Assembly: GCA_902766325.1 (NCBI GenBank)
Contig: CACXDF010000220.1
Location: forward strand, 1 to 30,110
From: an uncultured Eubacteriales bacterium
GTDB lineage: Bacteria > Bacillota > Clostridia > Christensenellales > DTU072
Length of the DNA: 30,110 nucleotides
Reading direction: 5' to 3'
A program made the position numbers and the translations under genes. The notes under the pieces are model-generated. The model was not told the DNA's origin. It saw nothing but the letters and a program-made list of their open reading frames with translations, and ran no database searches. Shown one piece after another: positions 3,723 to 25,200 of this stretch (positions within the stretch are counted from its first letter, which is position 1; each line of letters starts with the position of its first letter).

Positions 3723-6700
3723 ATGAAAAAAAACAAAATAAACAGTCCCGCAAAAGTTATTATCGCGATCGCGGTGGTTTTTCTTTTATTGCTGATCGTT
3801 TTTTTAGGGACTTCAAAACGCGCGTTGGAAAATAATCCTACCGAGATCGCTCATGCCGAGGCAGTCAAAGCAACGAGCGGAAGAATAACTTTTTCTTTTG
3901 AAGAACCCCAATTGATCCATTCAAACGGAAGCGAATATCAGCTGGGCGAACCCGTTTACGTCGATCTTGCGACGGAAAGCGATTGGATCGGTAATATCGT
4001 TGATAACTTCCGTACCAGTATTTCTTATTCTTCGACGGAGTATACCGTTAACAGACCTGCTTATTATAACGCCGCATCCGGTTCTCCCACCTCGTATTTT
4101 AAGCGTAACAATTATACGGACAGCGAGGATAAAACCAGATCGTGGAGCGTCAGAGATGTATTGGAAATCAGATCCGACAACGGCGCAACGCCCATCAGCG
4201 GGAATCATCCGATCAATAACGGTTCTTCTTACGTTTCCGCCGTCGCGAGAGGCGAGGTCATGAGTTTTTATTGCGAAACTTGTCACGCGAATAAATCCGC
4301 CTCTGAGATACAATATCACGTTTGTTCCGCGTGCCACGCACAACTGACGGCCGTCGGGACGGCGAATAATAACAAGTACGCCGTTAAATGTTCGAATACA
4401 TCGTGCCCGAATAATAATAAAATTTTCATGACGGGAAACGTTTGTCCCGGATGTGGCGGAACTACTACGATCAGCAATGGGATCAAAACCTGTACTCGAT
4501 CTACTTGCGCGTTGCGGAACAAAGAGTTTATCGATTATTACGATAATACCGTCGTTCTTTGTAATAACGGGCACACGATCACGCCCTCCCATCCCGGTAC
4601 CGAGACCGAACCGTGGGAAAAATTCAAAGTCGAAACGCCGAAAGATATCGGCGACGCCGAACACTTTAAGCTTTCCGTCGCTTCGCTTAAGATCAGCGGC
4701 TACGATTGGACGGGCAAAAAGATCACCAACAAAGAGATTTACGACGGAACGGACCTTACTGACGACGTGCTCGCCGGCATATATTACGTATCGTACGTCA
4801 AGTTCAATTTAACGGCAGACGTCGAATATTACAGCGGTTATTCTTATTGCGATCTGGATTGCTACCAGTCTTATTATGATTTGGAGGGAAACGACGGTTC
4901 TTCCATAAAGAACTTTTGGATCGAATGTTCCCCTACGACTACTCACGCCTCTTTTAACGCTAATTCTTTCGGAAATAAGTTGGAATATACTTATGCGCAA
5001 GGCAAGATGCCGATCGTTTGCACCTCTTCGATCGTTCTTGATAGTACGAAAATCTCGCAAAGAGTAAATAATAATCTCGTAAACGTCGACGACTATGTCG
5101 CAGTATACAATCCATCGATCAATTGGTCGGATAAAATCGGTTTGTACAAGTCGACGTCTTTCGATATACCCGGAGAGTTCCATTACAGTTTGGGCCTTGT
5201 TGATCGTGCTCCTTTTACTTTAAAAAAGGGGATTACCAACTCGGAAATACCGAACTCAACCCTGAACGTTCCGCTCGGAGATGGGACGGTAGCCGATTTT
5301 CTTAAAATCGAATGGTATCATGATGCTAAGTTGAATAATCCTGTAGACGATAATAGCGTGGTGGAAAGTGGCGATTATTATATAGTGATTCTTCCGACGG
5401 GAGGTTCGGATAGTAACTTCAATTTGAATTTAATTAATAATTATACCGGAGAAAGCGGTTTTGATTTCAAGAAGAATTTAATTCGTTTTATATATTCCGA
5501 CGGGACCAATATGCAAGAAATAACAGATGTGACGCAAAACGGCGTTACTTCCGTTTACGTGCAACACTTTTGTGTGTCAAAAACCAAATTAAAGGTAGAC
5601 GTAGTCAATAATTATGGCGGACAGTTGATCGCAACCAGCAAAATGTTTGAAAGGTATTATGATAAGATACCGTTAACAGGTTTAAACGCCGGAAGTGATT
5701 TGCCTTCCGATATAATGTATTATCAACAAATTCCGGAAGGTTCCGGCAATTATGTGCTGCAAGGCAATATCGATGACAACGGTACTTTTACGCCGGGTCA
5801 TTATTCTCCGGGAGTCGTTTATTATACGCAAGACGGTACGGAAGATAATCCCGTTTACGTTAAGGTTCCGTTATCGGGATTGACTGTCAATAACGAACTC
5901 CCGACCGATATGGTTTTTTATAAAAAAGGACTTGATGATAATTATATACCGATTCGGCAATATATCAACGATGAAATTTATACGCTGAATTATACTGCAA
6001 TGAAGAATGCCGCTGAGCTTTTTCAAAGAACGGTAAAAGAAGATTTGTCTAAGAGCGCTTGGACGGAAAAGATGGGTGGCTTTGCGCACGATTACCCATA
6101 CTATGATTTGAACACGTTTAGTTTTAGCGGAACTATGTTTCCCGATCCCAATCCGGGCGTTTATGATAGTTTGATTCTATCGGTTTCGTTTAATGATTCT
6201 TCCTTTAATAATAACTATTGCATTGAACTTGGCGAGTTTGATAATTATGGGAACTGGAATCCCTATTCGTACGTAGAAACGGAAAATCAATCGTATTTTT
6301 TGGGCAGTTTTGTTGATCCGGAAAGCGGAATGATACATTATCAATACAGATTTTTTCATCCGGAAGGAAATAAATTCACAGTATATTCGCCTCCGGTCGA
6401 AATCACCGTCGACGAGCAGTTCGGGCATACGTTTTCTTACGGCGAGATATTTGATTATACCGAGATAGACACGTCGATATTCGGGTTGGAAGGAGAAGTC
6501 GCCTACGACGCCGTCAACGATTATTATACTTTCGGTTCCGCCGATTGGGTCATTAAGATCGTCAATAATAAAAACGACGCCGTATCGATGGAGAATAAGA
6601 ACGTTATTTATATCGTCGCTTCTTTCTATATTTTGAGCGACGAGCTTTCTTACGGATATCAGGACGGCTATGTCAGTAAAGCGGAGGAAGGACTTTACGA

Positions 6701-9700
6701 ATCCCGGTATTACAGAATATATACCAACAGATTGTATCCGTTCTCTTATAACGAGGATTCGCAATCCTATTCCGACGGCGGAAGGTACTTTTTGTCTTAT
6801 TACGTTATGGCAAAGCCCATCAGCGGCGACGCAACGTATATTCCCACCGGCGACGGTCTTACGGCCGTATGGGACGTTGCCGCCGATAATCCGAATCCCA
6901 TCGATCATACGAAAACGGCGGACGAAAGACTGGTCGACGCCTTGGTCGCTTTCCGAATGGAAGATCCGTTCAATGCAAATCCGTACGAGATCAACATAAA
7001 TAAACTGGACGTGTATTATAACGTCGTCGACTACGCTCCCGAAAAGTATTACGACGGGACCAACGCGGTATATGCGCCCAACTACATCGCGGCCGTCGGC
7101 GGCAAAGATTATTTTGCCGGCGCGACGATAAGCAGAGATCCGGGCGACACCATATTCTACGAATACGACGAAGGAACCGATCGTTATTACGAAACGCTTG
7201 ACACTGTTTTCGGTAATTCTAAAACCTACTATATCGTTTCGCGGTTCAAACCGGCGGTAAAGGGATCGGATTATACCGCCGGAGCGACGGTGTCGAGTAA
7301 CAGCAAGGTATTCTACGAATATTTTTCCGTAGACGGACAGTACTATCAAACGAGAGACGAAGTTTTCTCCGGATCGAAAGAATACTACCTTAAGTTGCCG
7401 AATCGGAGTTGCGAACTGGAGTTGTTTGTTCTGGATCCGACTACGACCTTTACGCCGAGAGAAGCGCGGAACGAGCAGGGAGAGACCCATCTTTGCCATT
7501 CTGTTCTGGAATACGATTTATTTACCTATTTCGAGAGCATTGCGTGGATCAGCTATCAAAACGAACGCATCGGGGATCAATCGATCATTCTGAACGGCGA
7601 GATCGATAGCATGACCGGAGAACTCATGTATTTTACTTCGCATTTTACCGGGTCTCAGACCGAACCGAATAATGCGATACGCAGTTATAAAGTAAAAGAA
7701 TCTCTGTTTTATCGCAACGTAGAGCAGAGCGATTTCTGCGGTGTTATCAAGCCGCTTAGTCTTCGCGTGACCGTTTTGCCCGATCTCGAAAGACTTGCCA
7801 GCGATCAGGAAGGATATTCGCCCGCATATTATTCCCGTCCGTATCATTCGTTCTCCGGCGTTGCGATCATGGTCGCCGATCATAACGCAACCGACGCTTC
7901 CGGACAACACAATATGACGAATGTGTATAAGGAAAACGCTCTTTATCCGGTTTCCGACAGCGAATTGGCGTTAAGGCCGGAATTGGCGGACTACTATTAT
8001 GCTTATTATCTGGACGCAGATGATTTCAGACATGTGATCGGATTTGTTTTTTACGGCGATATGCTGAGGATCGCATCTGAAAGAAAAATCAAGTTTATTC
8101 GATTGAAAATAGAAGACGGTTTCTTGGAGAACGAGGGCTTCTATTGGCAGGGCGAAGCCGGATTCGGCGATTGGCAATTCCCGGTGGGTTATAAAGATTT
8201 CCTGTATAATCCGATTATCGGCGAAAGCGACGCTTTAACGCGCGATAAAGAAAAAGATTTTATTTACTGGTATAACGCCGGTAAGGCCGACGCCGCCGCC
8301 GGGATCAACGGCGCCACGGCGGTGCCCATCGGTTACGATACCGCCTACAACGGTTCGGACGTGAGCGATTTTTATATTCTGCATCTTGATTATGAATACT
8401 CCGTAACAAACTACGTTATTACGTATTTCAATGCGGGAGCCGAAACGACGGACTATAAAGCGGACAGCTGGTTCACGTTTGCGGTCACAAAAGCGATTCT
8501 GACCCCGGAAGATATCGATCTTATCATATTGCCGGACGAAAACCCGTCCGTCGGGAAATATCTTCAATACAATTCGTGCAGCCATTACACCGATATCGTT
8601 ATGGCGGAACCGAATCTGACGTACGTTACGTTCTACGGACATCCCGAATTGTCCGATTTCTATAATTACGACGCGACGACGGGGACTTTCTCGGGCGCAT
8701 TCTGCGATACCTTAGAACTTACTTATCAGGGCGTTTTGGCAAAAACTCAATATCAATTACGCGGTTGGATCATCGATACTTACGTTTCGGGCGGTGTTTC
8801 TTACGACAACCTACGCGGAACTTCGCTTTTGACGCGGATCGACAGAAACAATAATCTGCCCGACTTTGATTTCGACAGTATCGTGTTGAAAAAAGGTAAT
8901 TATAACAGAGACGGACGGTTTTTGACCGTGATCAGCTTTACGTATAAAACACCGGACGGAAACGTCACCGTCACGGGCGACGATATTACGGATAAAATGA
9001 AATCCTTTACTTTGGCGGGAACGTACGTCGTCGGCATTACTATCCCCGAGTCGTCAAACTACAGCGCGGTCAAGGGCGCGACGATGGAGTTCACCGTTTC
9101 TTCCGCAACCGTTCGCGTTTATACTACGGTGGCGTCTCGTAAGTATATGGAGGAATACGACGAAACAAAGGAGATCGGCTTTGTCGATTCTTCTCCGTCG
9201 AGGATGATCTTCGTCGATTCCGAAGAAGAACTTGAGACCTACGAAGCCTATATTGACGCCGACAACGGCGAAATCTATTTGGACAAAGCGAGCATTCCGA
9301 GCGGACGCGCTTATTATAAAGTTTACGTTTATCATAATCCGTTCGTACTTGCTACCGGTACGTTCTCCGCGGGAACGCTTTATTATCAACTGAGGAACGG
9401 CGTTTACGAAAACGCTACCGTAACGGTCGGCAACACCATTCCCGCAAACAGTTATTACGTTAAATCGTCGAACAAGTCCGATTGGACGTATGATATTGAC
9501 ACGACTTACGTTATTTATTGCGGTATCCAGCACCGGGACGGTATCGCTTCCAATCCGTTGGAAACGTTCGGCGTACAAGACGCTTATGCTTCCGTTCGGA
9601 ACAACATCGAGTCTTTCTTACAAAAGGACGGTCAGGATCGATTGATCGACGAAGCCAGGATATACGGTCGGGAAAACATCGTCGGACTCCCGGAAGTAGC

Positions 9701-12700
9701 GATCGAGATATACGGGGCTTATAAGCAGAATTATGAGTTCTATTTCCCCGGACAGGGCGAAACTTCGTCATATTTGTACGTTTGGCCGCAAATATTGTCG
9801 CTGGAAGTCGATTATCATCAGCAAATCGGCTATTCGGGCGACGCGATGATCCCCGATTACAACGTTTATAACGAAGATCACGACGAAATGACGGGAGCGA
9901 CTATGGGCTTGTATATCGCAGGTTACTATTATGCGGACGCCGCCGGCAAGATCCACGTTTTCGTAAACGAATTCACGCAAGACGGTTCTGCGATCGCTTC
10001 TACCAGACCCGCCGTCTTTGCGACCGCCGCCGGAGAGGAAGAAACTGCGGACGCGTATTACTACTTTTTGCAAGGCGACGAAAGAATATATGTTTACTGC
10101 GAAGGAACGTCCTGTTTCTATTACGCCGATAATAACTCCGCCGGATCGAAAGTGTATCTGAGCGATCCTGTTACGATTGACGACACTTATCAAGCGACTT
10201 GTCTAAACGTGATAGACGGAAAAGAGATCTATATATGGATCAACGAGGATTCCGCCGCGGCAGGCTGTTCGGAAGTAAACAGCGTTATCGACGTTTATAT
10301 GGCGGATATGACGAAAGGCGGTTATATCCTTAAAGTTTCGGCAAAGCCGGATAACGCTCAAGGATGTAGCGAAACGAACTACAGAGAGAGTCAAAAAGCG
10401 ATCATTCTTTTTGATATTCTCAGTACTATCGTTAAATTGGACGATGAAAAAATATATATCGAAAAGAAATTCGACGGTTCCGTTTATGGATCGAGAAACG
10501 ACGATAGTTTGTATTTTAACAGTTTCTTTATTAACGAAAACGCCGGCGCGCACGTCGAAACGAAGATGGGTTGGGGTTGGGTCAGTATAGAAAAGTATTA
10601 TTACAACCCCCGCACTTCCGCCGCTACGATAGCCGGCATGAACGGTATTACGTACGAAAGCGCTTTTTCCGCGGCGGACAGGACCGACTGGGGACGTCTT
10701 ATCGACTATGAGGATGGCGATCTCGTATCTGCCGGATGGTATATTCTTTTGATGAAAGCGTCTATCAGCGACGGTACCTCTACGGACGGTCGTTTTGACA
10801 GAAACATGATCGGAAATATCGGTTTCAAAGCGGTGCCCGCGTTTACTTTCGGAGAGACGGAATACGCGAGCGACGATACTACCATTTACTTTATCGTGTA
10901 CCTGGCGCGTTCCCGCGCGGACGACTACCAGTTCGATTTGACTGTAGAAGGTTTACGGGAGGAAAACGATATAAATATCTCCGGTATCGATAAAGTCTAT
11001 TCCAAGTCGTACGATAAAACTCAAAACGATTATGATTTTATTTTGAGAGTTACGAACAGAGATTCGTCGAAAGGTCAGATCGTCAGCGTGACCGCGTCCG
11101 TATCCCGTTATGCGGATATGACCGCCGCAGAAGACTTTTTTACCACGAGAAGAAACGTTAAGAACGCGCCGTACGTCTTCGGAGAAGAAAACGGTTACGC
11201 TATCGGCGACAGCACGTCCGGAAGCGACGGAACGGCTTATTTCTATAATAAAATAAGCGGTTCTTTGTACAATTTGACTTCCGATATCGACTTTAAGATC
11301 GGGAAGACGTATTACGAATTGAACAGTGCGTTTATCGAATATTTGAATCTTTCTTCCGAAATGCAGTCGTATATGCTGAATTCGTATGAAGATCCTAACG
11401 GCGCATCGTTCTATCTTCGCTTTAAGGTCAACGATCGAAATTCCGGTTATTACGATAATAACTATGCCGAAAAGACGTTTGTTTTCGCTGTTTGTATCAG
11501 AAAAGCCGAGCTTCAGGTTCGTATAATAACGAAAGAGATCCCGCCGGAAGAAAACAACGGTATTTCGGGCGAACGTTACGAATCCAGCAAATATTACGGC
11601 GAGGCTCCGCAATCCGTTGAATATAAATTCGGTTTTGAGTTTATCGGTTGGAACGCCGGCGATGAAAACCTTATGTCTTTCTATAGCGAAGATATGTACC
11701 CCGTCATCAACTGGAACGGCATTACGGCAAGCAGCCCGGCAGGTAGCGATTATCACATATACGCCGCGAGCGGGCCCAATACCGTAGAACTCGATAACTA
11801 CGTTATGGTGTACGAGCAGGCGACTCAATTCGTTATTTTACGTCGAGCGCCGACCGTTTCTTTCGAGGCGACGCAGGTCTATCAAGGCAAGGCGCTTACG
11901 CCGACGGTTATTCGTGTGGGTATTGACGGACAGAATCTCGACGATTCTTCTTCGGGCAATCCGGATATACTCGACGCTAACGATATAACGATCAGACGTA
12001 AAGGTATGTATAACGCCGGAAGAGGCCGGTTCTGGTATACGACGGTCAACGATCCGTTAACGAAAATTTACGATACGATCCCTGCCGGAGGACTGCCTAT
12101 CTCCGCGATTTATTCTTCGAATTTCGACGATGCGTTCGTCAGCGTAGGCAGCACTTATGACGTCGGATTGTATTTATATGAAGTTTCGTTCGGCAGAAGT
12201 TCGAACTATCTTGCCATAGAGCCGACTTATTATTTATTCGAGGTCACAAAAGCTCCTTTGACGCTCAAATTCTGGGATATCAACTCGAATAACGCTTTTC
12301 GTGGCTATGCCGAAAAGATATACGATAAGAGCACGACGAATTATCCTCTTTTCGTCGTAGCGTACGAGGGATTCGTCGGAGGGGACGATTCCGCCGCCAA
12401 TAAAGCACCGCAGACGATCATGTATTATCGTACGTCAAACGGAGAGACGACGGGGATAAGAAGTATCGGACTCATCAATCCTTATTACGTCTTTGTCGAC
12501 GGAGAAACCGGTAAAGAATCGGTCGGGAATTATGCGGACGACTATATTTATCCTATCGACATTATTAAGGATTCGGGCGGTAACGTCATACCGTACTATG
12601 TAAAACTGATCCTGTCGGATACCTATGGTATAGCGGATAACTATTATATTTCGGTAGATTATTTCAAAAACGATGCGAACAAGGTTTTGTATCCGGAAAT

Positions 12701-14891
12701 GGTCATAACGCCCAGACCCGTCATCGTTACTTTTGACAGTACGAAAGACAGGATAGCGAAGATATACGACGGAACTACGGCGGTCATCGCAAAATCCGTA
12801 ACGAATGCAAACTACTTATTCGCGCCGAAACCGGGCGATGAGAAGTCCGGTCTGATCGCAGGAGACGAAATACTTTTGGACGTCGATTATAACGCCAGCA
12901 GGTATTCTCGTAAGGACGTTTATGAACAAACGGTCGATCCGGTCACCGGAGAAACGGTTTTCGTTAAGTCGGACGTTATCGTCACGGTTTATGCAAGCGA
13001 TCAGCTTCTCGGCGCACAAAAGAACAATTATAAATTGTTCTGGGAAGACGAAAACGATAAACGGATACAACTTCTCGGTACTATCAGCCAGGCGAAGGCG
13101 ACCGTTCAGTTCTTCGCGGACGAGACGATGAGGTCGCAGGTCAGATCGCGCGTCAGCGTCGTCTATAACGGCGAACGTCAGCCTGTCTATAAAAACGTCT
13201 TCGGCGTGCCGATCTACAACGATCGGAACGAGATCGTCGGATACGAAACGATCGACTATTCCCAACGCTATTATTCGGAAGAGACGATGTACGACAGCGA
13301 CACGTTACCGCCGATAAACTGCGCCGAATACATCTATGAATTGACGGTCAAAAACGATACCCTCGCCAACAGAAACTACCTGGCGGAAACGTCTTGGATA
13401 CGCCTCGAAATAGGGCTTGCAGACGTTACTATCGTTTTCGGCGGAGACGCTATGCAGACGTACGGCGATATCGGATTGGGGTTGACCGCAGTGGCAAACG
13501 GTATCGGCGGTTATTCCGAACGTCAGGAAGTAGCTTATTTCTCCTCGTACACGCCGAAAGCCGTCTATAACGATAACGGAGATATATTATACTACGTCGA
13601 CGATCAGGACGGTTTCAGCGGTCTGATTCCCGATATTACGCGCGCTTTTGCCGGGACGTACTTTGCTCGCGTTATTTATCAAAGAACGACGAACTTCCGG
13701 GATTCGTTTGCGTATGAAGAGTTTACCATACTTCCGAGAGAAACCGTCTGTTCTTTCGGCTCGCTTGCCGAAGAATACCCGTATTCCGGCGAGACCCCGG
13801 AAATCGAGTTCTATATAATGTACGAAGAAGAACGTATCGCCGTACCGCAAGTGCTTTATAACGTGGCGAGAAACGGCGTTATGGAACCGTACAATTATAC
13901 GATTTCGGACGGCGTTATTACGAACATAAGGTCCGATCGCACGCCGATCAACGTCGGGGAATATCAAGTCAAACCTTATGATCAAGCATTGAGTAACTTT
14001 ATTATCAATAATGCGACGTGGATCGACTTCAAGATCACGAAAGTCGACGTGCTTATTACCGTAGAAAACGCTTCGATCCTGGTCGGAGAAGATTATACGC
14101 CGCAGTATTCCGTTTTGAGTTCTTCTACCAAAGAGAACGTTGTGTCCGTGCTGCGCGGAAGGATCCAGTTACGCTATTACGATGCGGTGACGGGAGAGGA
14201 GTTGGATTCCAAGCCTACGAAAGCCGGTACGTATAAAGTCATGCCGGAAGAGATCGCTTTGGAAAACTATAACGTCCACAGTCAATGGGGTACGCTCGTT
14301 ATTAATAATAACGAGATCAACGCCTCGATGCCCGGACAAACCTCGTCCGCCGACAACTACGTCATGATCGTCGGTTCTTTCGGACAGGATACGAAAATAA
14401 CCGTCAGCGAAGCGCAAAACGTGCCTGAATCCGATATTTCGCGCTTGTTCGACTCGTATAAAGAGAACAATAAAGAAATGGAAGGGTATTATTTGTCGAG
14501 CGTATTCGTATTCTCGATCGAAAATTACACATATACCGGAACGGAGGATACGGGATTCACGATCAAAATCAAAGTCCCCGGGTTGTCGAGTATCATCCAT
14601 CGTTCGTCCGAAACGGCGCAGAATGTCGCTTACGCCGCCGAAGAAGATGTCTATGTCGCCGTGTTCTATGAAGACGGAAGTATGCAGATCGTGTCGGCAA
14701 CGATCGAGGATGACGACAGCTTATCGTTCGAGACTTCTTCTTCGCATGTGAAAGCCATCAGTATTCTTACGATGGAAGATCCGTACGCCGTTCAGGAAGT
14801 AAACCTCGATTGGCTTATGTACCTGTTTATCGGAATAGGCGTTTTGGCTCTCGGACTTGCGCTGCTCCTGGTGCTTAAAAGGAATGGATAA
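3723..14891 (+). CDS. Gene A: giant (3722 aa) secreted, C-terminally membrane-anchored adhesin-like protein with MBG- and YDG-type repeats
   Basis: N-terminal MKKNK + hydrophobic stretch + AHA/EA (signal peptide or anchor). Cys cluster at aa 184-284. MBG-like units (e.g. VTKAPLTL...AEKIYD...YEGFVGGDD at ~12243; KPTKAGTYKV...LENYNV...GTLVI near 14215-14300). Clear YDG-like unit (ITPRPVIV...AKIYDGTT...GLIAGDEI...LLGAQKNNYKL, ~12705-13090). C-terminal TM WLMYLFIGIGVLALGLALLLVL (14811-14876) + KRNG; no LPxTG. Confidence 0.85.
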   Translation: MKKNKINSPAKVIIAIAVVFLLLLIVFLGTSKRALENNPTEIAHAEAVKATSGRITFSFEEPQLIHSNGSEYQLGEPVYVDLATESDWIGNIVDNFRTSISYSSTEYTVNRPAYYNAASGSPTSYFKRNNYTDSEDKTRSWSVRDVLEIRSDNGATPISGNHPINNGSSYVSAVARGEVMSFYCETCHANKSASEIQYHVCSACHAQLTAVGTANNNKYAVKCSNTSCPNNNKIFMTGNVCPGCGGTTTISNGIKTCTRSTCALRNKEFIDYYDNTVVLCNNGHTITPSHPGTETEPWEKFKVETPKDIGDAEHFKLSVASLKISGYDWTGKKITNKEIYDGTDLTDDVLAGIYYVSYVKFNLTADVEYYSGYSYCDLDCYQSYYDLEGNDGSSIKNFWIECSPTTTHASFNANSFGNKLEYTYAQGKMPIVCTSSIVLDSTKISQRVNNNLVNVDDYVAVYNPSINWSDKIGLYKSTSFDIPGEFHYSLGLVDRAPFTLKKGITNSEIPNSTLNVPLGDGTVADFLKIEWYHDAKLNNPVDDNSVVESGDYYIVILPTGGSDSNFNLNLINNYTGESGFDFKKNLIRFIYSDGTNMQEITDVTQNGVTSVYVQHFCVSKTKLKVDVVNNYGGQLIATSKMFERYYDKIPLTGLNAGSDLPSDIMYYQQIPEGSGNYVLQGNIDDNGTFTPGHYSPGVVYYTQDGTEDNPVYVKVPLSGLTVNNELPTDMVFYKKGLDDNYIPIRQYINDEIYTLNYTAMKNAAELFQRTVKEDLSKSAWTEKMGGFAHDYPYYDLNTFSFSGTMFPDPNPGVYDSLILSVSFNDSSFNNNYCIELGEFDNYGNWNPYSYVETENQSYFLGSFVDPESGMIHYQYRFFHPEGNKFTVYSPPVEITVDEQFGHTFSYGEIFDYTEIDTSIFGLEGEVAYDAVNDYYTFGSADWVIKIVNNKNDAVSMENKNVIYIVASFYILSDELSYGYQDGYVSKAEEGLYESRYYRIYTNRLYPFSYNEDSQSYSDGGRYFLSYYVMAKPISGDATYIPTGDGLTAVWDVAADNPNPIDHTKTADERLVDALVAFRMEDPFNANPYEININKLDVYYNVVDYAPEKYYDGTNAVYAPNYIAAVGGKDYFAGATISRDPGDTIFYEYDEGTDRYYETLDTVFGNSKTYYIVSRFKPAVKGSDYTAGATVSSNSKVFYEYFSVDGQYYQTRDEVFSGSKEYYLKLPNRSCELELFVLDPTTTFTPREARNEQGETHLCHSVLEYDLFTYFESIAWISYQNERIGDQSIILNGEIDSMTGELMYFTSHFTGSQTEPNNAIRSYKVKESLFYRNVEQSDFCGVIKPLSLRVTVLPDLERLASDQEGYSPAYYSRPYHSFSGVAIMVADHNATDASGQHNMTNVYKENALYPVSDSELALRPELADYYYAYYLDADDFRHVIGFVFYGDMLRIASERKIKFIRLKIEDGFLENEGFYWQGEAGFGDWQFPVGYKDFLYNPIIGESDALTRDKEKDFIYWYNAGKADAAAGINGATAVPIGYDTAYNGSDVSDFYILHLDYEYSVTNYVITYFNAGAETTDYKADSWFTFAVTKAILTPEDIDLIILPDENPSVGKYLQYNSCSHYTDIVMAEPNLTYVTFYGHPELSDFYNYDATTGTFSGAFCDTLELTYQGVLAKTQYQLRGWIIDTYVSGGVSYDNLRGTSLLTRIDRNNNLPDFDFDSIVLKKGNYNRDGRFLTVISFTYKTPDGNVTVTGDDITDKMKSFTLAGTYVVGITIPESSNYSAVKGATMEFTVSSATVRVYTTVASRKYMEEYDETKEIGFVDSSPSRMIFVDSEEELETYEAYIDADNGEIYLDKASIPSGRAYYKVYVYHNPFVLATGTFSAGTLYYQLRNGVYENATVTVGNTIPANSYYVKSSNKSDWTYDIDTTYVIYCGIQHRDGIASNPLETFGVQDAYASVRNNIESFLQKDGQDRLIDEARIYGRENIVGLPEVAIEIYGAYKQNYEFYFPGQGETSSYLYVWPQILSLEVDYHQQIGYSGDAMIPDYNVYNEDHDEMTGATMGLYIAGYYYADAAGKIHVFVNEFTQDGSAIASTRPAVFATAAGEEETADAYYYFLQGDERIYVYCEGTSCFYYADNNSAGSKVYLSDPVTIDDTYQATCLNVIDGKEIYIWINEDSAAAGCSEVNSVIDVYMADMTKGGYILKVSAKPDNAQGCSETNYRESQKAIILFDILSTIVKLDDEKIYIEKKFDGSVYGSRNDDSLYFNSFFINENAGAHVETKMGWGWVSIEKYYYNPRTSAATIAGMNGITYESAFSAADRTDWGRLIDYEDGDLVSAGWYILLMKASISDGTSTDGRFDRNMIGNIGFKAVPAFTFGETEYASDDTTIYFIVYLARSRADDYQFDLTVEGLREENDINISGIDKVYSKSYDKTQNDYDFILRVTNRDSSKGQIVSVTASVSRYADMTAAEDFFTTRRNVKNAPYVFGEENGYAIGDSTSGSDGTAYFYNKISGSLYNLTSDIDFKIGKTYYELNSAFIEYLNLSSEMQSYMLNSYEDPNGASFYLRFKVNDRNSGYYDNNYAEKTFVFAVCIRKAELQVRIITKEIPPEENNGISGERYESSKYYGEAPQSVEYKFGFEFIGWNAGDENLMSFYSEDMYPVINWNGITASSPAGSDYHIYAASGPNTVELDNYVMVYEQATQFVILRRAPTVSFEATQVYQGKALTPTVIRVGIDGQNLDDSSSGNPDILDANDITIRRKGMYNAGRGRFWYTTVNDPLTKIYDTIPAGGLPISAIYSSNFDDAFVSVGSTYDVGLYLYEVSFGRSSNYLAIEPTYYLFEVTKAPLTLKFWDINSNNAFRGYAEKIYDKSTTNYPLFVVAYEGFVGGDDSAANKAPQTIMYYRTSNGETTGIRSIGLINPYYVFVDGETGKESVGNYADDYIYPIDIIKDSGGNVIPYYVKLILSDTYGIADNYYISVDYFKNDANKVLYPEMVITPRPVIVTFDSTKDRIAKIYDGTTAVIAKSVTNANYLFAPKPGDEKSGLIAGDEILLDVDYNASRYSRKDVYEQTVDPVTGETVFVKSDVIVTVYASDQLLGAQKNNYKLFWEDENDKRIQLLGTISQAKATVQFFADETMRSQVRSRVSVVYNGERQPVYKNVFGVPIYNDRNEIVGYETIDYSQRYYSEETMYDSDTLPPINCAEYIYELTVKNDTLANRNYLAETSWIRLEIGLADVTIVFGGDAMQTYGDIGLGLTAVANGIGGYSERQEVAYFSSYTPKAVYNDNGDILYYVDDQDGFSGLIPDITRAFAGTYFARVIYQRTTNFRDSFAYEEFTILPRETVCSFGSLAEEYPYSGETPEIEFYIMYEEERIAVPQVLYNVARNGVMEPYNYTISDGVITNIRSDRTPINVGEYQVKPYDQALSNFIINNATWIDFKITKVDVLITVENASILVGEDYTPQYSVLSSSTKENVVSVLRGRIQLRYYDAVTGEELDSKPTKAGTYKVMPEEIALENYNVHSQWGTLVINNNEINASMPGQTSSADNYVMIVGSFGQDTKITVSEAQNVPESDISRLFDSYKENNKEMEGYYLSSVFVFSIENYTYTGTEDTGFTIKIKVPGLSSIIHRSSETAQNVAYAAEEDVYVAVFYEDGSMQIVSATIEDDDSLSFETSSSHVKAISILTMEDPYAVQEVNLDWLMYLFIGIGVLALGLALLLVLKRNG
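4272..4574 (+). other. Cys/His-rich putative metal-binding cluster in gene A (aa 184-284)
   Basis: CETCH (4272-4286), CSACH (4323-4337), CSNTSC (4389-4406), CPGC (4443-4454), CTRSTC (4491-4508), CNNGH (4560-4574). Confidence 0.7.
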
Positions 14892-14893
14892 TA

Positions 14894-16114
14894 ATGAATA
14901 AAAAGGTCGTTTTTAAATATAAATTTGTTGTTTTTATCGTGTTATTTATTGCGTTGGCGGCGTCGTTTTTATTCGGCGTCGCGCCGCGGGAAAACGCGTA
15001 CGCCGCGCGTCAAAAAGTAATGACCGCGGAACAGTCCGAGGACGTGGTATATTGCGGAAAAAACTTCATCGACGCATCAGGCAAACTATGCGATACGGAC
15101 GTGGACGCGCCCGGTTTTAATAACGATCTTTTTGACTCTTTCGTATTTAAATTGGACGGACAGGAGATCGACGTCTCCGTCGAAGACGTTTTGTTCGAGA
15201 CGATCTCTTCCGTTCAAAATCCCGGTCAATACGCGCTCCCCGTTACCGTTTTTTACGATAACGTCTATTATCGCGTTTCTTCCGTGAATTTTGCTATCAA
15301 AAAGAGAACCGTCACGGTGTTGACGCTTCTGAACGGAAAAACGGATCTGACCGTAAACGAGGGAGATGATATTTCGATCTCGTACGACTATCAGAACGCC
15401 GTTCCGGCGCATACGATGCAAGTATCGCATAACGGGGTATCCGTAACGGAAATCAGATCGGAGTACATTACGATACCGGCATGGACGGACGTCGATATAA
15501 CGAGACCTATCGAAAACTGTCACGTGGTTGCGGCGCATGCGGAAAGCGATTATTACGATTTCGTTTATACGGGCGCTATCCTTACGATCCTGCCCGCCAC
15601 GGTAAAAACGCTTAGTTTTTCGGATGAAAAATCGACGCGTCTCGTACTTGTCGGGGATTTCAGCGTACTTCATTCCATGCGGTATACCGATATCGGGATC
15701 GATCCTTCCGGAGAGGATTTTTCCGTTATCAGCGCCAATGCTGACGTCATCTATAAAGACACCGGATTTTTCGATAAATATGAAAAAAAGGGCTGTTTTT
15801 CAGTCGAAATGTTTTATAATAACAACGTCGTAACGGAAAGCGTACCGGCCGAAGTCGCCATCCTCGCGTCTTCTTTGGATACGTCGAAAAAATACAAGGT
15901 CGTAGCCCTGTATAACAACGGCCGGAGCGAAGTTCTCGACGCAAAATTAAACGACGGATTCTTGCGTTTTAACGCTTCCGATATGGGCGATTTTATTATC
16001 GTTTCCGAGATACAGGGCTTAAGTATAACTTATTACGTTCTTGTGATCGTCGGCGCCGTCGCGCTTATCGTTATCATCATCTTGCTTATTTCTGTTTTTC
16101 GTAGAAAATATTAA
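14894..16114 (+). CDS. Gene B: 406-aa surface protein (signal peptide, 1-2 MBG-like domains, juxtamembrane beta-domain, C-terminal TM)
   Basis: Start overlaps A's tandem stops (TAATAATG, 14889-14896). Signal peptide ends in ENAYA-A. MBG-like QNPGQYALPVTV...AIKKRTVTV and DYYDFVYTGAILTI. TM YYVLVIVGAVALIVIIILLISVF + RRKY. Confidence 0.8.
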   Translation: MNKKVVFKYKFVVFIVLFIALAASFLFGVAPRENAYAARQKVMTAEQSEDVVYCGKNFIDASGKLCDTDVDAPGFNNDLFDSFVFKLDGQEIDVSVEDVLFETISSVQNPGQYALPVTVFYDNVYYRVSSVNFAIKKRTVTVLTLLNGKTDLTVNEGDDISISYDYQNAVPAHTMQVSHNGVSVTEIRSEYITIPAWTDVDITRPIENCHVVAAHAESDYYDFVYTGAILTILPATVKTLSFSDEKSTRLVLVGDFSVLHSMRYTDIGIDPSGEDFSVISANADVIYKDTGFFDKYEKKGCFSVEMFYNNNVVTESVPAEVAILASSLDTSKKYKVVALYNNGRSEVLDAKLNDGFLRFNASDMGDFIIVSEIQGLSITYYVLVIVGAVALIVIIILLISVFRRKY

Positions 16115-16156
16115 AAAAAAAGACGTTTCGGCAACCTTAATTTTTGGATTTTGCTC

Positions 16157-16190
16157 TTGCCTTTCTCGCGCGTGTATGATATTATATTAT
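16157..16190 (+). promoter_or_regulatory. Probable sigma-A promoter for gene C
   Basis: TTGCCT (16157-16162) - 17 nt - TATTAT (16180-16185), preceded by TG-n (extended -10); an alternative TATTAT lies at 16185-16190. GGAGG RBS at 16216-16220. Confidence 0.5.
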
Positions 16191-16224
16191 ATAAGCTATA
16201 GGTATGCCCTTTTTCGGAGGATAT

Positions 16225-19200
16225 ATGATGAGAAAGAAATCCGCTTCGGCACTTTTGATTTTACTGTTGGTTTGCTTCCTTTTGCTGACCTTATTTGCCT
16301 GTAACGACAGGAACGGTATTTCCCAAGAGTCGCCGATACAAAAGATCATCATTACCACTATGCCGAAAACGAATTATTACGTCGGAGATAAGTTCTCCGT
16401 CGGGAATGCCGATATCACCGTTTATTACGAAAACGGAAAGAGCGAACACGTTCCGCTTACGCTCAACATGATCTCCGGTTTCGACTCTAACGTCGTCGGC
16501 GATCAGATCCTTACCGTTTTTTACAAGAACCAGACGGCTTATCTCACCGTTAAAGTCTCCGTTGCTCCCGTTTATTCCGTTCAACTCGTTAATATGCCCG
16601 ATAAAACGAATTACGTTATCGGAGAATCTTTGGACGTCTCCGGGATGAAGATCCTCGTCACGTACAGTAATAACTACACCGAGATCATCGACGTCACCGA
16701 GGATATGATCTCGCTTTTCTCGACTGAAAGAGAAGGCGAGACGGAAATGACGGTATCTTACGGCGGAAAGTCCTGTATGGCTGCTTATTCGGTCGCGACA
16801 AAGACGGCGGACCATATCGAGATCAGTCTCGGCGATTCTTTCCGTATCGCTTACGTCGTCGGCGACGCTTTCGAACTTACCGGCGGCAGCTTTTTTGTCC
16901 ATTACAACGACAACACGTCGGAGTTCCTTGATTGGGACGCTCTTTACGAGCAGGGCGCGCTCACGTACGTTATCGAGAAAGAGACCAACAACGTCTTTAC
17001 TACGTCCGCATTGGAAAGAAACGTGTTTTTATACTACAAGGGAGAAAAATATCAAACGGCCGTTACGGTCGCGGCAAAGCGTCCGCAAGGCATTTCCGTC
17101 ATGTCGGATGCGCCCGATCAAATTTTGAAGGGCCATATCGATCTGACCGGGGGGCAACTCTACGTCGTTTATAACTCGAAACAAACCGGTTACGTCGCCC
17201 GCGTTAAGGACTCTACCGCCGAAGCGCGCCGCGCATACGCAAGCGGCGTCTGGAATACCGCTCGTTCCGCCTATTTCACGCTTAAAAACGGCGAATACGT
17301 CGGCGCCGCGAGCGACTTTGACAATAACGCCGTTTATTATACTTCTTCGGAAACCGCTTTTGCCGATCGCTATCAAACGCGTAAAGAATTTTTGTACGTA
17401 AAAAAGAATTCGACTTTTGAAAAAGCGCCCGAAGAATACGACGCCTCCGTCGTTTATTACATTCCTTCCAACGCTCGTCTTTTCGATTTCGACGATCAGA
17501 TCAACGTCGACGTGGTCTGGAACGATTTTGACATCAACGTCGTCGGAGAGTATTCTATTCGCTTGACCGTAGACGGAGCTTCGCTTGACTATCGCATTAA
17601 GGTTATAGCGCCTTCGCCGATCGCGTTGGAAGTCTATCCGACGGAAGGCGACGTGAACGTGGACGCCGTCACCGGCGCGTATTACGTCTATCAGGACGAG
17701 ACTATCCACGTCACCGACTGGGAATATAAGATCAAACAGAATAACGACACTTATTCCATTATTTCTTCCACAGGCGCTTATTCCGCAAACGTCACTTCGG
17801 AAATGTACGTCGGCAGTACTTTTATGACGAACCACGCCGTAGGAACGTACGACTATGATTTTTCTTTTACGACGGTGACCGGTATCACGCTTCGTTGTTC
17901 CGTGCCCGTGGAAGTTCGTCAAAGAGTTATCGTTTCCGCTACCGTAGTCAATCCGACCAGAGTCGTGTACAGCGTGGGCGACGAGGTCTCTTTGGCGGGC
18001 GGGTCCTTGCGCGTGCGCTATATTAACGGCGTCGAAGGTCAAACGATGTCTTTTACCGCCGATATGCTTTATGCCGAAGATCCTACCGGTAATTCGCCTG
18101 TTCGTTACGTCGCGCAGGACGGTTCCGTCGTTCCTCTCGTAAAAAGCGGCACGGACGCTTTTACCGCGAGCGTGGGAACGAGCAAACTCTATATCTACTA
18201 CGAGGACGCTTATTATAACACCTCTTATGCGACGGAATTCGATATCACCGTTATCGTCAAGGCGATCGCTATCGCTTTGAACGAAGATAAAGAAACCAAA
18301 AACGACTATATCCTCGGAGAAGACTTTTCGATGGCCAATTGGGAAGTCGTCATAACGTACGCCGACCAAAGTTACGCCACGGAAAACGATTTTTCCGACA
18401 GTCGGTGGACGATAGAAGGAAACGATCTCTCTACCGTCGGTACGCACACGATCACCCTTTATTACGGGGATAAGTCCGATAACGTGGCGTTGACGTACGT
18501 CTGTACCGTGCATAACGACATTGTTTCCGTTCGTCCGAACGTCGATTTTATCGGGTGCACGACGGAAGGAAAGGGTTTTGATTTCGAAGGATTGAACTTT
18601 GTGGCCGTCCGTGAAAACGGCGATGAAGAAAACGTTCCTATGGCGGCGATGACGATCTCGAAAACCAAAGCCGGAGCCTATGTTTCCGTTCCGACCGAAT
18701 ACGCGCCCGCTACATTCGTAAACGAAGAAAATTGGTCCGTTTACGGTCTGTCTCTATACGAAAAATCGGGAGGAAGTTACGTTTTTGCGACGGCTTTCGA
18801 CATTTCGAAAGAGTACTACTACGCCGTCGACAATATGACGAATATTTCTTTTACGTACAGCGGAAAAGAAGCGATCGTATCCTCTCTCGTCGTCAGCAGA
18901 CGAGTCGAAAGCGTGTTCGTCGCGGCGTACCCGGAAACGGAATACGTTCTTGCCTCCGCCGGAGAATGGGATCTGAGCGATCTTGTTTTGCAAATAGCTT
19001 TTGATAACGGCACGACGGCCGTCGTTAAGCACGCCGATACCGGCTCGACCGTTACTTTCTCTCAAAGCGGCGACAGGTACGTATTTACGCTCAACAATAT
19101 GACTTATTATTTTGAAGTTAAGACGGAAAGCGGCGTCAATTATTCTTTATCGGACATCAAAAACGACCTGCAATCGCAATCTGCGGAAGAATTTATCGAA

Positions 19201-22200
19201 AAGGATCTTGTATTTTCCGTCGAGGATGTCGCTTATCGCGCTCCCGTTTTTTCCGCTTCCGTTCCGTTCTATTGCTTTAATCAAAAAGTTGTGTCTATCC
19301 ATGCGGAGATCGGCGTACCGGTTGTGAGCGGTTCGGAAGTGATCCGCGTTAACGAATTTACCGATACCACCGTTTATTTGAACGAAGGCCTTGCTCTTTA
19401 TACCGTTTCTTCCAACGGAGAGTATTCTTTCGTGGATGATAACGGTACGAAGAGATTCGTCTATAACGATTCCGTCGTAAAAACCGATTATCTCGATTGC
19501 ATTTATCTTGTCGTCGAGTATGATACGACCACCGTCTACAAAAAACTTGCGGACGTCGCGTCTTCTTCCGGTTTTTCCGTCTCCGGCTACAAAGAGAACA
19601 AAACCGGCGCGCAAACGATCCGTCTTACTTATCTTTTAAAAGATTGCTCTTTTATGGCGTACGTTCGTCCCGACGTTCCGTACGCGATTTCTTTTGTCGA
19701 TGAAAACGGACAAAACGTAACCGAGGCCACCGTGATCGAGAATATGGACATCGATCCTAATAAGATATCCGTATCCGTTGAACTGAGAGACGCCGACGGC
19801 GACGCCGTGGCAACGAGAAGAAAAGTCGATTTTTCCGACGCCGCTTGTACGTATGACAAAACGGAAGCGATCGTCTTTACCGAGAAAAACACCGACGATA
19901 TATTCTACACGCAAAAAACGGTGACGGTCACGTACGAAGGCTGCAGCAAAGATCTTACGCTTACCATTTTAAAGAAATCCGTTTCCGAGATCGTCATTCA
20001 AAACATGCCGAGACAGGTTTATGCGGAATTGCCCGAATTCGCAAGTACGGACGAAAGCGTTCTTTTGTATACCGATTCGAACGGAGAAATAGGCACGATC
20101 CTCGTTCGCTATAATAACGGAACTTCCGAGATCGTCCCGCTCAACGACTCCAGATTGCGCGTCAACGCGGCCCAATTCAATACCAAACTCGTGTTGAATG
20201 ACGGCGCGGAACAATCTCAGATCATTACCATCGGTTTTACCGATGAAAACAACGTTACGAAAGAAACGCATTATAACGTTATCGTACGCGACAGAAAGTA
20301 CCTGACTATCAGTTATGACAGTTCGAATAATCTGTCTTTTGATAACGTCTATTATTGTCAATACGGTACCGGAGCCGACGCAAGACCGAAATTCGACGTA
20401 TATTACTATTCCGACTTTTACATGAACGCGCCCGTCGCGTTTAACGGTTACAGCGTGAAGTACGAGTATCACGACGACGTTTTGGGCGACGTGACTCGTA
20501 CCGTTTGGCCGACAGAAGTAGGGCGTTATACGATGGTCGTTTCTTACGCGGGCGACTATGCCAATAACGCTTTCGAGGATAGATCGGTCACCATCGAGAT
20601 CACCAAAAAGCAGATCGGTATTTCCGTGGAAGATATGAGCCTTACGTTCGGGGATAAGTTTTCCGGGACGGCGACGGACGTCACGTCTTTGCGCGCGCTC
20701 GGTTTTACTTGGAATATGAGCGGCGTAACGGGCGGACGACTGACCGGGGACGCTTTTGTGCTCGGCGACACCCTCGACAACGTCGTATCCGTGTCTTTCG
20801 AGCTGCAAAAGGACGGTCGAAAGGTCGATCCCGCGTTCAGCGGAGATAACTCTTATCTCGTTATGACTCTGAACGTCGGCAGCTACTATATCAAGCCCAT
20901 CATTACGCTGAAAAAGGCGAACTACACCGTCCCCGAAGGGGTAGGCGATCTCGGAGCGACTCTTACCGTCGTGAAAAAAGCCATTAAGATCGTCGCGCTT
21001 GACGAAAAGAAGGTATACGGCGATCGCGATCCCGTTTATCGTTTTGAAATCTACGATGAAACCGATAATCTGCTCGGCGGTAACTATTATCGCGAATTGA
21101 CCGGGTATACCGTCGGCGATCCCGTGGCGGAAAGCGTCTTTATTTGCGATCCCGTTACCGGGATATATTCTCAAGCGGCGGGAACATACGAATCCGGGAA
21201 GACCTATTACGTATTCAAAGCGGAGATCGAAATCGATCCGATCTTCGTCGATACCGCTTCTTCGTCGTACAGATTGGTCCGTTCCGGGACGGATACGGAT
21301 AACGTCAACGACTATCACAGGATCTTTAACGGCGACACGGAAGGAACGCTCGATAACTATTCTTTGATCGATTACAGCTATGCTTCTTTGATCGTTTTGC
21401 CTGCGGAACTTACGTTGACCGCAAGCAGGACGACTCGTCCTTTCGGTACGGCCGATATGTCGATCGATTATATCGCCGCCGCGACTTCTTCGTTCAAATA
21501 CAACGACGATTTTGATTCCGTTTTCGGACCGTATTTTACGCAAAGCGCCGTATTATACTACGATATGACGGGAAAGAGCGTGTACGAGACTTTAACGGAA
21601 GGCCTTTCTTCTTACGACGATTGGGCCGTATTATATCGTAATCTGGAGATTGACGGATTCGAGTCGGTCGTTTATATGGGCGCGACCTATGCGGTCGTGC
21701 CGATCGCTCTTGCCTGCGGGACGTATACGTGTCGTATGAGCGACGTTTATTCGGACGTAGTGAAGAACTATATCGTCACGACGCAACCGTTTGAAATGGA
21801 GATACTTCCTATCGGCGTTCGTCTGAACGTCGGTTCCGTTCTGCTTTACGAAAAATCTTTGATCAAAGACGGCAGAAGAAATGCTTTTATCGACTATTTC
21901 TCTTTCCCGAGAGAAGAGTTTTTGACGGTCAATATTTACGGCGAAACGCTCACTTTCTCCGATTTCGTTTTTTCAGTCGATAATCGTGACGATATCGAAA
22001 ACCTGTATGCGGATTGGATGTCGAAACTGATCGTCGGCGCCGAATACGAGACCGGTACCGGCTCGAAATATTTGCTCAGTTCCGACTTTTTGAGCGGTTT
22101 TACGTTCATAAAAGAACGCGGAACGGACACGGGCGTCTATCGGGTCTCCGTCGGATATAACTATTCCGATAACTTCTCCGATTTCAGCGTTATCAGTCGA

Positions 22201-25200
22201 AACGAAGATAAAAACAAGAATTATTTCTCATTCTACTATGACATTTTCCGCAATCAGTACGCGCAGGTGTCTACCATGCAGGCGACTGCCTACGATACGG
22301 ACGCATACGTGATCGTTTTGCCCGGATTTGCCGATTTGAAGTATTATAAAGTCGACGAAGACGGCAAGAGATATCAAGAAGTCTATAATCTCAATAAGGC
22401 ATCCTCTTGGGGATTGAACGCAGAATACAGCGTCGACCAAGAAAATTATTACGGTATGTCCTCCATCGGAACGGACAGCGTTACTTATTCTATTACGCCG
22501 AAAGCGGGAACGCAATTTATCGTGTATAACCGCGAGAATTGTCTTGCCGCGGGCGACTATACGGGTTCCGTCACGTATTCTTATTTTGCCGACGTGAACA
22601 AATCGTCGAAGTTTTCGACAAACTATATCTATCTCGGTAATATGAGCGTGCTTTTGGATAGCGATATCGCCTCCGTCCTCAATTACGTTTTGTTCGGAAC
22701 GGTGACGGACGGCGCGTTGACGTTCAATAATACTTTTGATTATACCGTTACGCAAAAACCCGTTAGCGTATACATAGAAAACGGCGACGTCCAATATAAT
22801 TTTGCCAATCAAACGCTTATCGCTCGCGTGGACGGAAGTTTGGCCGAAGGCGACAGATTGAACTTTTTATTCGACGTTTCCGTCGTCTATAACAGCAAGA
22901 CGGACGTCGTAAATAAAAACGCGTCCACGATCAGGAGTTTCAAGTATTATTCCGTTGTCCCGGAAGAACTTTTAACGCGCGAGAACCTGCCGACTTATTA
23001 CGAATACGGTTCGAGAGGATTTGTGTTGACGCAAGATACCATCCCCATGAATCGTAAGGCGTACTATCTGCTCACAGAGGCGTCGGATCCGTCGGTCGAG
23101 GCCTACGATATCGCGTATTCCGGCACTTATACGGTCAGATTAAACGATCTTGGGAACGCCAATTATTGCCTCGAAACGGACGAAACGGTTCAAAAGACGT
23201 TTGCCGTCGTGCCGAACGAAATACCGATCCTGTTATATAACAAAGCGGCTATGCCGCAGGTCTCCACGACCGATTTTACTTTTGAAGAGACGTATGCCAA
23301 AAAGGCTTTCTCGCCCATCGATTACAGCTGGACGTCCACGACCTACGCCAACTCCTTGCTGTTCGACAGTATCGATCTTAGCCAGCTTTCTTCCGTTAAT
23401 TCTTCTGCGACGAGGAAGATCGGTACGGCTGCGATCGGCGGCCAAACATACGACGTCAACGTTAAGTTCCGCGGTACGTTCCCGAGCCTGACGGTGACCG
23501 GTCGCACGATCAGTATCTCCGGAAGCAACGGCAGAACGCTCGCGCAGGATACCTATTCGTCCGAGTACGACTATTATTTCTATTTTGTGGACGGCGGAAA
23601 CGAACGCAAGGTCTATTACGACGCCGGAACGGGTTCGTATTATTACAAAGATGCGCCGTATACGACTTTCAAAACGACTACCTGTACGATAACCGACTAT
23701 TACTTCGACGAAAACGGCGTTTTACATCGTCCCCAACCGCTTGTCAATACGCCGAACACGTTGTTTATTTATTCGGAAGACGAGCCCGGCTCCGGCAACA
23801 GACCCGTTTACGTCAAACGCGACCCCGATACGAAGAGGGTGCTCGGTTATGACATCGTATCGAGAGATACTTCCGACTACGTCAACTATACCGTCGTATT
23901 CGTCTATTTGGACAACGGCGTATACAGAGAATGCGACGACGCGCATCTGTTCTCCTTTGTGATCAATCCGGCGGAAGTTTCGCTCTATAATTTCTCGTCC
24001 GCGAATACGAAGGATTACGACGGTATCGACGCCGCTATCGCAAATACCTCGAAATTGACCGTCAACGGCGCTCTGTCCAACGATCCGATCAGCGTGTCGG
24101 ATATCCAATTCGACTTCGAGCGTATCGATGCGGAAGGTTCTACTTATATTACGATCGGCGGAGTCAGATATTATCTCGTGGAAAACGACGATATGAGCAG
24201 CGTCGGCTTGTTTAAAGTGAGAGCGTTTTATTCCGATAACTACGAGATCGTCTTTAAAGGAAACGGCGCTTATAACGGCTCTCCGTCTCCGTACGGCTTA
24301 TATACCATCAAGAGAGTCAAAGCCACATTTGAATTTAATAACGAGATCGCGGCTTATCTCTCCAAGGACTACGACGGATCCGGGCTTACGGACGAGACCT
24401 TGCTTTATTCCGGCGATCTGACCGAATTCGTCGATCGGGGATATAACGTGATCAGTAAACAAAGTAAGACCATCGTCGATAATTTTTCCGATATACGGTA
24501 TCAACTTCAAGTGAAAGGATATGCTTCCGTTTTCGGCGGGACGCCGACCGCTATCGCTCAAAATCAGATCGCCGGTTATAACTATTCCGCCGGAGTTTAT
24601 TGGTTTGACTTCTACGGCGTTTTCGTAGACAAAGACGGTAATTATCGTCGGTACGAGGACAGAAGCAATAAAGAAGAGGGCGAAAACCGGTGGTTGAACT
24701 GGAACTATACCTATATCGTCAACAACAAGAAAGACGTCAATAAGATCGGAGACGTCTATTACGACGGTATTTATCAGATCGATAAGAGAAAAGTATATAT
24801 CGGTATCGACGGACAATTACCCGCGAATGCGACGGATACTTCGTATACCTATACGAAAGAGTACAACGGCACGACGATCACCAGATCGACGATCAATACC
24901 TGGCTCGATAGCGGCGTCGTCACCGTCTATATCTACGATGCGGTCAAAAAGGATTTCGTTCCCGTGAAAGATACCGATTTCGCCGATTCTTTCGTCGGAG
25001 GCAGCGTATCCGTCAGCGGCGGAAGAGAATCGATCACGAATGTGTCGAGTTCCGAATACTTCGAGCTGAGCGCGTCCGATATCGCGACCAACAATACCGA
25101 CTTTATCATCGTCAACTCCGATATCCGCTTTATGTTGAAAGCGATCGAGATCGAGATCATGTTGACTTATACCAATGCGGATAGCGGAAACTCCGCTTCG

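Follow-up and report, generated by a model that had tools for sequence, protein, structure and literature searches.

A tyrosine-rich module in two giant surface-protein genes

We analyzed contig C220 (CACXDF010000220.1, 30,110 nucleotides, hereafter the window) of an uncultured Eubacteriales bacterium (GCA_902766325.1), a member of the gut Clostridia. The source genome, labeled G000 here as its relatives are labeled G001 and so on, is a metagenome-assembled genome of 1.73 Mb in 313 contigs and is 85% complete. The window holds two giant genes, A and C, and the products of both carry a tyrosine (Tyr)-rich module, which in C forms a long tandem array and also lies inside immunoglobulin (Ig)-like and MBG_2 domains. 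The genes and the array are located as follows.

3723-14891, plus strand: gene A, an open reading frame (ORF) whose translation is a giant surface protein of 3722 aa
16204-30108, plus strand: gene C, a giant protein of more than 4635 aa, its frame open at the window end
25429-30108, plus strand: tandem array of the Tyr-rich module, C aa 3076-4635, with 23 hidden Markov model (HMM) copies in aa 3109-4607, in part arranged as a ~68-aa super-repeat

As read from the sequence, the product of gene A has an N-terminal hydrophobic signal or anchor and a C-terminal transmembrane (TM) segment, and that of gene C begins with a lipobox-like signal, after which come Big_3 units, MBG units and the Tyr-module array, in this order. 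A Pfam scan gave no family at significance for A, and in C it recognized three Big_3 units (68.3 bits), near the N-terminus only. Scanning both giant proteins against NCBIfam returned no match. Giant adhesins of uncultured gut Clostridia are nearly all unannotated.

We built a profile from the array alone by aligning eight ~68-aa units and iterating hmmsearch on C aa 3076-4635; on convergence the profile comprised 23 copies and 57 positions. Each unit consists of a lead-in, not always present, with an aromatic pair or G-x-Y-Y, a segment G-x-D-Y-x-x-G-x-x-[IV]-P, and a 25-aa hairpin that ends in G-K-x-Y-Y. The hairpin core of ~25 aa runs from an aromatic pair over three to five residues to G-x-Y, T-x-D-x-x-F and G-K-x-Y-Y, and the full module measures 40-57 aa. 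Orthologues of C are 5823-7473 aa long. In the one from G010 (82% identical, 6544 aa, in the stretch 64000-83999 of contig C12) the array covers aa 3136-4727 and ~1800 aa of further domains come after it, so the array is internal, and a preliminary description of this DNA was wrong in calling it terminal. Judging by the length of the G010 orthologue, the C protein, cut here at the contig end, is probably ~6500 aa long. The G021 orthologue has additional unit clusters past aa 5300.

Dispersed copies of the module

Tyr makes up 8.7% and 10% of the two giant proteins and 13.5% of the array, and with proteins this rich in Tyr overall a control for chance matches was needed. We searched A and the part of C that precedes the array (aa 1-3075) with the array-only HMM; the controls were 300 global and 300 local (40-aa window) composition-preserving shuffles plus the reversed sequence. 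In the real sequence, eight matches scored 2.5 bits or more, compared with 0.08 (global) and 0.05 (local) per shuffle. The best shuffle scored 7.8 bits, none reached 8 bits, and the reversed sequence had a maximum of 2.3 bits. With a hairpin-only profile there were seven matches at >=0 bits versus 0.22 in shuffles. The dispersed copies therefore stand well above a shuffled Tyr-rich control.

Three copies only, two in A and one at C 1630, match the full module over 40-45 aa, and these also cover the non-aromatic G-x-D-Y-x-x-G segment; they are homologous to the array units. The other matches consist of the 25-aa C-terminal hairpin. The idea that the same module sits at all sites thus holds for the three full copies, while the weak sites have the 25-aa hairpin in common only. 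In A, we considered four sites.

7092-7388, plus strand: two tandem full modules, A aa 1124-1170 (8.7 bits) and aa 1177-1222 (17.4 bits)
9318-9485, plus strand: ~1.5 module units, A aa 1866-1888 (5.4 bits) and aa 1896-1921 (6.4 bits)
11241-11315, plus strand: single hairpin unit, A aa 2507-2531, 2.5 bits against the array HMM
5664-5954, plus strand: internal duplication K-[IV]-P-L-[TS]-G-L ... Y-Y, A aa 648-744, at best -2.0 bits against the array HMM

Eight sites had been proposed in the two proteins. Matches fall where they were expected, the quoted peptides are present at the coordinates given, and seven of the places are supported, C 18676-18834 by way of homologues only. The eighth, A 5664-5954, had been described as two partial copies; it does not match the array module and was rejected as a Tyr module, being an internal duplication of a different kind that is conserved in both orthologues alignable there (G010 and G016). 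What had appeared as a permuted order at A 9250-9464 can be read as one unit ending and the next one beginning.

The module interrupts Big_3-like and MBG_2 domains of C

Upstream of the array, C contains two Big_3-like domains and one MBG_2 domain with an insert, and one further hairpin.

17080-17652, plus strand: split Big_3-like Ig domain including its insert, C aa 293-483; AlphaFold2 predicted local distance difference test (pLDDT) 87.2, predicted template modeling score (pTM) 0.80
17191-17487, plus strand: 99-aa insert, C aa 330-428, from the orthologue indel and the AlphaFold2 model
18676-18834, plus strand: single-unit insert in a later loop of a second Big_3-like domain, C aa 825-877, from homologue alignment
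20971-21438, plus strand: split MBG_2 domain, C aa 1590-1745, from PF18676 profile scores and alignment
21091-21210, plus strand: complete Tyr module inside the MBG_2 domain, C aa 1630-1669, 14.1 bits against the array HMM
22993-23067, plus strand: single hairpin unit, C aa 2264-2288, 2.6 bits against the array HMM

To compare the first Big_3 site among species, C aa 200-620 was searched against 60 relatives. Four congeners (G010, G016, G001 and G021) matched over the full length; in all, five congeners have the insert. Another 17 match in two pieces, query residues ~14-130 and ~230-421, that are 0-35 codons apart in their DNA, and the 99-aa segment is therefore missing there; in the alignment, the Big_3-like sequence of the insert-free proteins is uninterrupted. 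We then modeled C aa 293-483 with AlphaFold2 from a 12-sequence alignment. The flanks of the insert measure 37 and 47 residues, and Ig-like structures align over 70-89 residues across model range 1-191, from which it follows that the two flanks make one Ig domain and that the insert is skipped. The model thereby agrees with an Ig-like beta-sandwich of ~70-90 residues. The best VIA match was 4fdw (Z 7.4, root-mean-square deviation (rmsd) 2.5, 79 residues aligned), and LigB/LigA Big domains gave Z 5.7-5.9, moderate values; Atlas clusters that are 91-100% Big_3 aligned over 83-89 residues with rmsd 2.7-3.1. A Foldseek search of the Big_3-plus-insert model against the PDB and AlphaFold Database (AFDB) clusters gave no match at E<=0.001, and structure searches found none for the insert by itself.

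AlphaFold2 predicts the C 330-428 insert as two units, each a beta-hairpin and a strand ending in YY, plus two helices, with helices separating the units; residues 355-379 score 3.1 bits against the array HMM. The insert has been kept nearly as well as its flanks, with 77, 51, 40 and 31% conservation versus 89, 51, 51 and 43%. C 293-483 has no PF07523 match at the 21.2-bit gathering score, and an insert-free homologue reaches 14.7 bits (E 0.038). The earlier suggestion that a Big_3-like unit resumes after the module is borne out here by the orthologue indel and by a model with a single Ig fold, and the intact Ig flanks sought with AlphaFold were obtained for C 293-483 at a pLDDT of 87.2.

In the second Big_3-like domain the insert follows a late K-A-G turn, whereas in the first it follows an early Y-N-S-K strand, as judged from the alignments; the C 825 and C 330 inserts thus occupy two different loops. 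On its own, the C 825-877 insert does not match the module (C 851-872, -1.3 bits against the array HMM); its connection to the C 330-428 insert comes only by way of homologues from other species.

At the MBG_2 site, when 13 homologues are aligned, both halves of one domain, N- and C-terminal, are seen to be conserved on either side of a variable loop (C aa 1628-1671). The loop holds the Tyr module in G000, G010, G016, G021 and G001; in G017 the loop is short, and G023 lacks an insert. Against the MBG_2 profile (cut-off 25), the window copy scores 15.1 bits over profile positions 1-62, and two insert-free homologues score 42.2 bits (2-71 of 72) and 27.2 bits (1-72). C 1590-1745 is accordingly assigned to MBG_2 by sequence homology with the insert-free proteins, the window copy being split, and the proposal that an MBG unit is interrupted and then completed is supported here. 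Big_3 (PF07523) and MBG_2 (PF18676) are the Pfam families of the host domains; Pfam misses the copies in the window because they are split by the module and their scores drop below the cut-offs.

Among the homologues of C aa 1590-1745 (L028-L034), the same MBG_2 loop carries, in six other congeners, an unrelated insert of 45-65 aa with the motif G-L-x-P-I-G-[ST]-K-x-G-I. The loop seems to be a hot spot for insertions in general.

Copy number varies between orthologues and a double unit recurs at another site

Full-length orthologues were retrieved and scanned with the module profile. Presence and copy number differ among them at three sites. At A 1124-1222, where the flanks are conserved (K-x-Y-D-G-T upstream, V-L-E-Y-D-L downstream), there are two copies in G000 and G010, one in G016 and G001, and none in G019, G018, G008 and G024. 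At A 2507-2531, G000, G010 and G016 have one copy and the G001 orthologue has five tandem copies in the same place. At C 825-877 there is no unit in G001 and G006, one unit in G000, G010, G016 and G021, and a ~100-aa double unit in G018, G024, G008, G003, G019 and G020. Two further sites vary as well: A 1866-1921 is present in G000, G010 and G016 and absent from G001 (a gap of ~42 aa), and C 2264-2288 is shorter or degenerate in G016 and G021 and ~100 aa longer, with additional units, in G001. The preliminary description had named three tests of itself, namely shuffled controls, placement between domains and invariance among orthologues. All three were run, and the module reading passed.

For four of the six clade-2 proteins (L020, L016, L021 and L017, with E values of 4e-6, 1e-5, 1.5e-5 and 2e-3), the double unit at the other Big_3 site, C 825-877, aligns collinearly with the C 330-428 insert over 83-95 aa; the remaining two, L018 and L022, gave no match with this insert at E<=0.05. 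A homologous element of ~95 aa in different loops, domains and clades is the strongest evidence for copying over growth of the loops in situ.

The G001 orthologue of A (L057, on contig C50) is 4538 aa long and has its five hairpin units in aa 3091-3328. Some 750 of its residues, between aa ~2005 and 2756, are without counterpart in A. A homologue search with A 1040-1330 found two close orthologues only.

The insertions are old

We looked for traces of movement in the DNA. Matches among copies extend over ~24-59 nt at 70-83% identity and correspond to the codons of the conserved G-K-x-Y-Y motif. The Big_3 insert junctions have no duplication, the best match of 15/24 nt being at chance level. 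When 29 full-length module copies (49 columns) were placed in a maximum-likelihood tree, the A and C labels clustered no more than in shuffles; copies of G000 and G010 paired, and the intermixing of A and C copies was neither supported nor contradicted. This pairing of orthologous copies places the tandem duplication in A before G000 and G010 diverged. The insertion events are old and clade-fixed, dating from before species splits at 40-80% protein identity.

It is very improbable that the module is an actively mobile coding cassette that is moving today by a dedicated mechanism, such as programmed recombination or a system like diversity-generating retroelements (DGR) or inteins. Such a cassette would account for the presence of the module in both genes and in several types of host domain, and for a copy number that varies between species. 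It is contradicted by direct repeats that do not go beyond ~24-59 nt at 70-80% identity, by junctions free of duplication, by the pairing of orthologous copies across species, which places the events before speciation, and by a window without recombinase or reverse transcriptase, in which the flanking genes are BipA/TypA and ORFs without a family. The term mobile cassette, used in the preliminary description, is apt on evolutionary time-scales; there is no DNA repeat, junction duplication or recent copy to support it in a stricter sense.

With 55 module matches spread over 14 contigs, the source genome offers an ample supply of donor copies. At least 12 other large open frames (730-3522 aa) in this genome contain the module. 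The contigs with the module include C27, C73 (~10 copies), C116, C146, C237, C84, C198, C98, C15, C162, C161 and C203.

Distribution of the module and its phage context

At E<=1e-3, the module was matched by just 53 out of 1.84 billion representative proteins, and among 150 genomes sampled from the order, besides G000, we found a single match, in one congener, at E<=1e-5. Pfam, NCBIfam and PHROGs contain no family matching the array or the modules. A sequence search of the PDB with the module profile gave chance matches only (E>=0.16), and feature searches of the ESM Atlas gave no usable match or neighbor.

Some of the module matches are short acidic proteins of 5-6 hairpins. One of these, P0022 (L051:6001-7023), is an acidic protein of 340 aa with five hairpins of the form Y-E-L-x-x-G-x-Y-V-x-T-x-D-T-x-x-x-x-G-K-T-Y-Y; its gene lies on an 87-kb contig between a tape-measure gene and genes that match phage tail and host-adsorption PHROGs. 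Together with the similar short proteins P0013 and P0020, P0022 suggests that the hairpin is used by phages too. We searched GenBank phages by tblastn with the array and with the phage-context protein and obtained no match.

A broader reading, which we consider doubtful, is that the module is a previously undescribed, genus-restricted plug-in that has repeatedly colonized different loops of several extender families in giant Gram-positive adhesins, varies in copy number from species to species and is shared with phage tail proteins. Were it true, the stalk would be a multivalent, rapidly diversifying surface for binding or for decoying phages.

Nested insertion and its alternatives

We think it likely that the Tyr-rich unit folds by itself into a small beta-hairpin mini-domain belonging to an unannotated, essentially genus-restricted family, and that it occurs both in the internal array and nested in loops of extender domains, where it arrived by ordinary in-frame duplication or illegitimate recombination. 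The module would accordingly have two settings: a long internal tandem array, and nested insertion in surface loops of Big_3-like, MBG_2 and unclassified A domains, a nested host being a split domain that bears the module as a side appendage. We infer that the inserts derive, by recombination or in-frame duplication, from paralogous copies, of which the genome has many, and that tandem duplication and deletion later expanded or contracted them; these would be old, clade-fixed events rather than the work of an active mobile element. What lies in C is a genuine, unusually dynamic nested-domain (split-domain) architecture using a new lineage-restricted Tyr-rich mini-domain.

Several observations weigh against this reading. 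In the module tree, 17 of 26 inner branches have no support, and searches for repeats, junctions and recent copies found no DNA-level trace of any transfer. Five of the eight dispersed matches score just 2.5-6.4 bits and cover the hairpin alone. By hhalign, the link between the Big_3 insert and the array is marginal (E 0.014 over the 25 columns of the 25-aa hairpin), and Tyr-rich hairpins may therefore have converged at this site. The evidence from the C 293-483 model was read from match ranges and aligned lengths. The Tyr residues may do no more than form the core of a tiny fold. In A, the AlphaFold2 model of aa 1060-1360 (8-sequence alignment) is of low confidence (pLDDT 37.9), insert-free homologues of the host domain gave no Pfam match, and hhalign of this domain against the MBG alignment found no relation (E 0.37).

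The data from A would suit an arrangement of beads on a string, in which each module is an independent small domain or a linker joining one stalk domain to the next and talk of a resumed host domain is over-interpretation, for at the A sites there is neither fold support nor an assigned family for the flanks. We regard this as improbable. At C 330-428, C 825-877 and C 1628-1671 the evidence refutes it: there the flanks jointly form a canonical domain, as seen in the Big_3 model with its structure matches and in the near-complete MBG_2 coverage (2-71/72) and contiguous alignment of insert-free homologues. The claim that the module lies inside host domains thus stands at three C sites, while the A host domain is unclassified (pLDDT 38, no similarity to Pfam or MBG).

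The weak scores, in turn, could reflect convergent elaboration of loops, with independent Tyr-rich hairpins arising at the weak sites in permissive loops of proteins that are 8-10% Tyr. This explanation, which we judge unlikely, draws on the Tyr content itself (8.7-10%), on the low-scoring matches and the -1.3 bits of C 851-872, on the marginal hhalign result, and on the unrelated insert in the same MBG loop of another clade, which indicates that loops are generally permissive. It is opposed by local-composition shuffles, which yield 0.05 matches of at least 2.5 bits against the eight observed; by three copies that match 40-45 positions, among them the non-aromatic G-x-D-Y-x-x-G; and by the Big_3 double unit, collinear over 83-95 aa at different sites. 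Nested insertion of a homologous module remains the reading that we prefer.

Comparison with known systems

In repeats-in-toxin (RTX) adhesins of the AhLap, FrhA and MpIBP types, split domains project ligand-binding domains (PMC12077191, PMC10865825). As in these, an Ig-like extender of a giant fibrillar adhesin is broken after its early strands by a folded unit, beyond which the chain resumes and completes the Ig fold. RTX adhesins are Gram-negative, Ca-dependent proteins secreted by a type I secretion system (T1SS), whereas the proteins here are lipoprotein- or TM-anchored and belong to Clostridia. The RTX inserts are large (carbohydrate-binding module (CBM), vWFA or RTX roll) and restricted to the distal ligand-binding region; the unit inserted here, by contrast, is a Tyr-rich mini-domain of 25-100 aa that is scattered along the stalk, forms an array of 1500 aa as well and varies among congeners. 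Neither A nor C contains RTX or a related Pfam family, and their architecture is an analogue of the RTX-adhesin split domains, not a member. By that analogy it can be seen as their Gram-positive counterpart. The analogy (PMC12077191) and the phage context together suggest that the module may have an adhesive, ligand-binding or surface-decorating role.

The array also resembles the choline-binding (CW_binding_1) and glucan-binding YG repeats of Gram-positive surface proteins, likewise short aromatic hairpins arranged in long tandem arrays. The 1560-aa array has no Pfam match at E<=1, including to CW_binding_1 (~20 aa, G-W-x-x-x-x-G-x-W-Y-Y-F). Unlike choline-binding repeats, the module is almost without Trp and has the signature T-x-D-x-x-F-x-x-G-K-x-Y-Y. 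Choline-binding and YG repeats are not known to occur as nested inserts in Ig domains.

The analysis defines a new repeat family, with a profile, and provides a natural series of the same Ig and MBG domains with 0, 1, 2 or 5 nested modules. The series is suited to studying how loops tolerate small domains and to the split-domain principle in Gram-positive adhesins.

Neighboring genes

Directly upstream of the giant-protein locus, at 555-2378 of the window, lies an ordinary BipA/TypA translational GTPase (GTP_EFTU 183 bits, BipA_C 153 bits). Gene A is flanked by two ORFs, 2397-3542 (381 aa) and 14894-16114 (406 aa), for which Pfam gave no family at E<=1.

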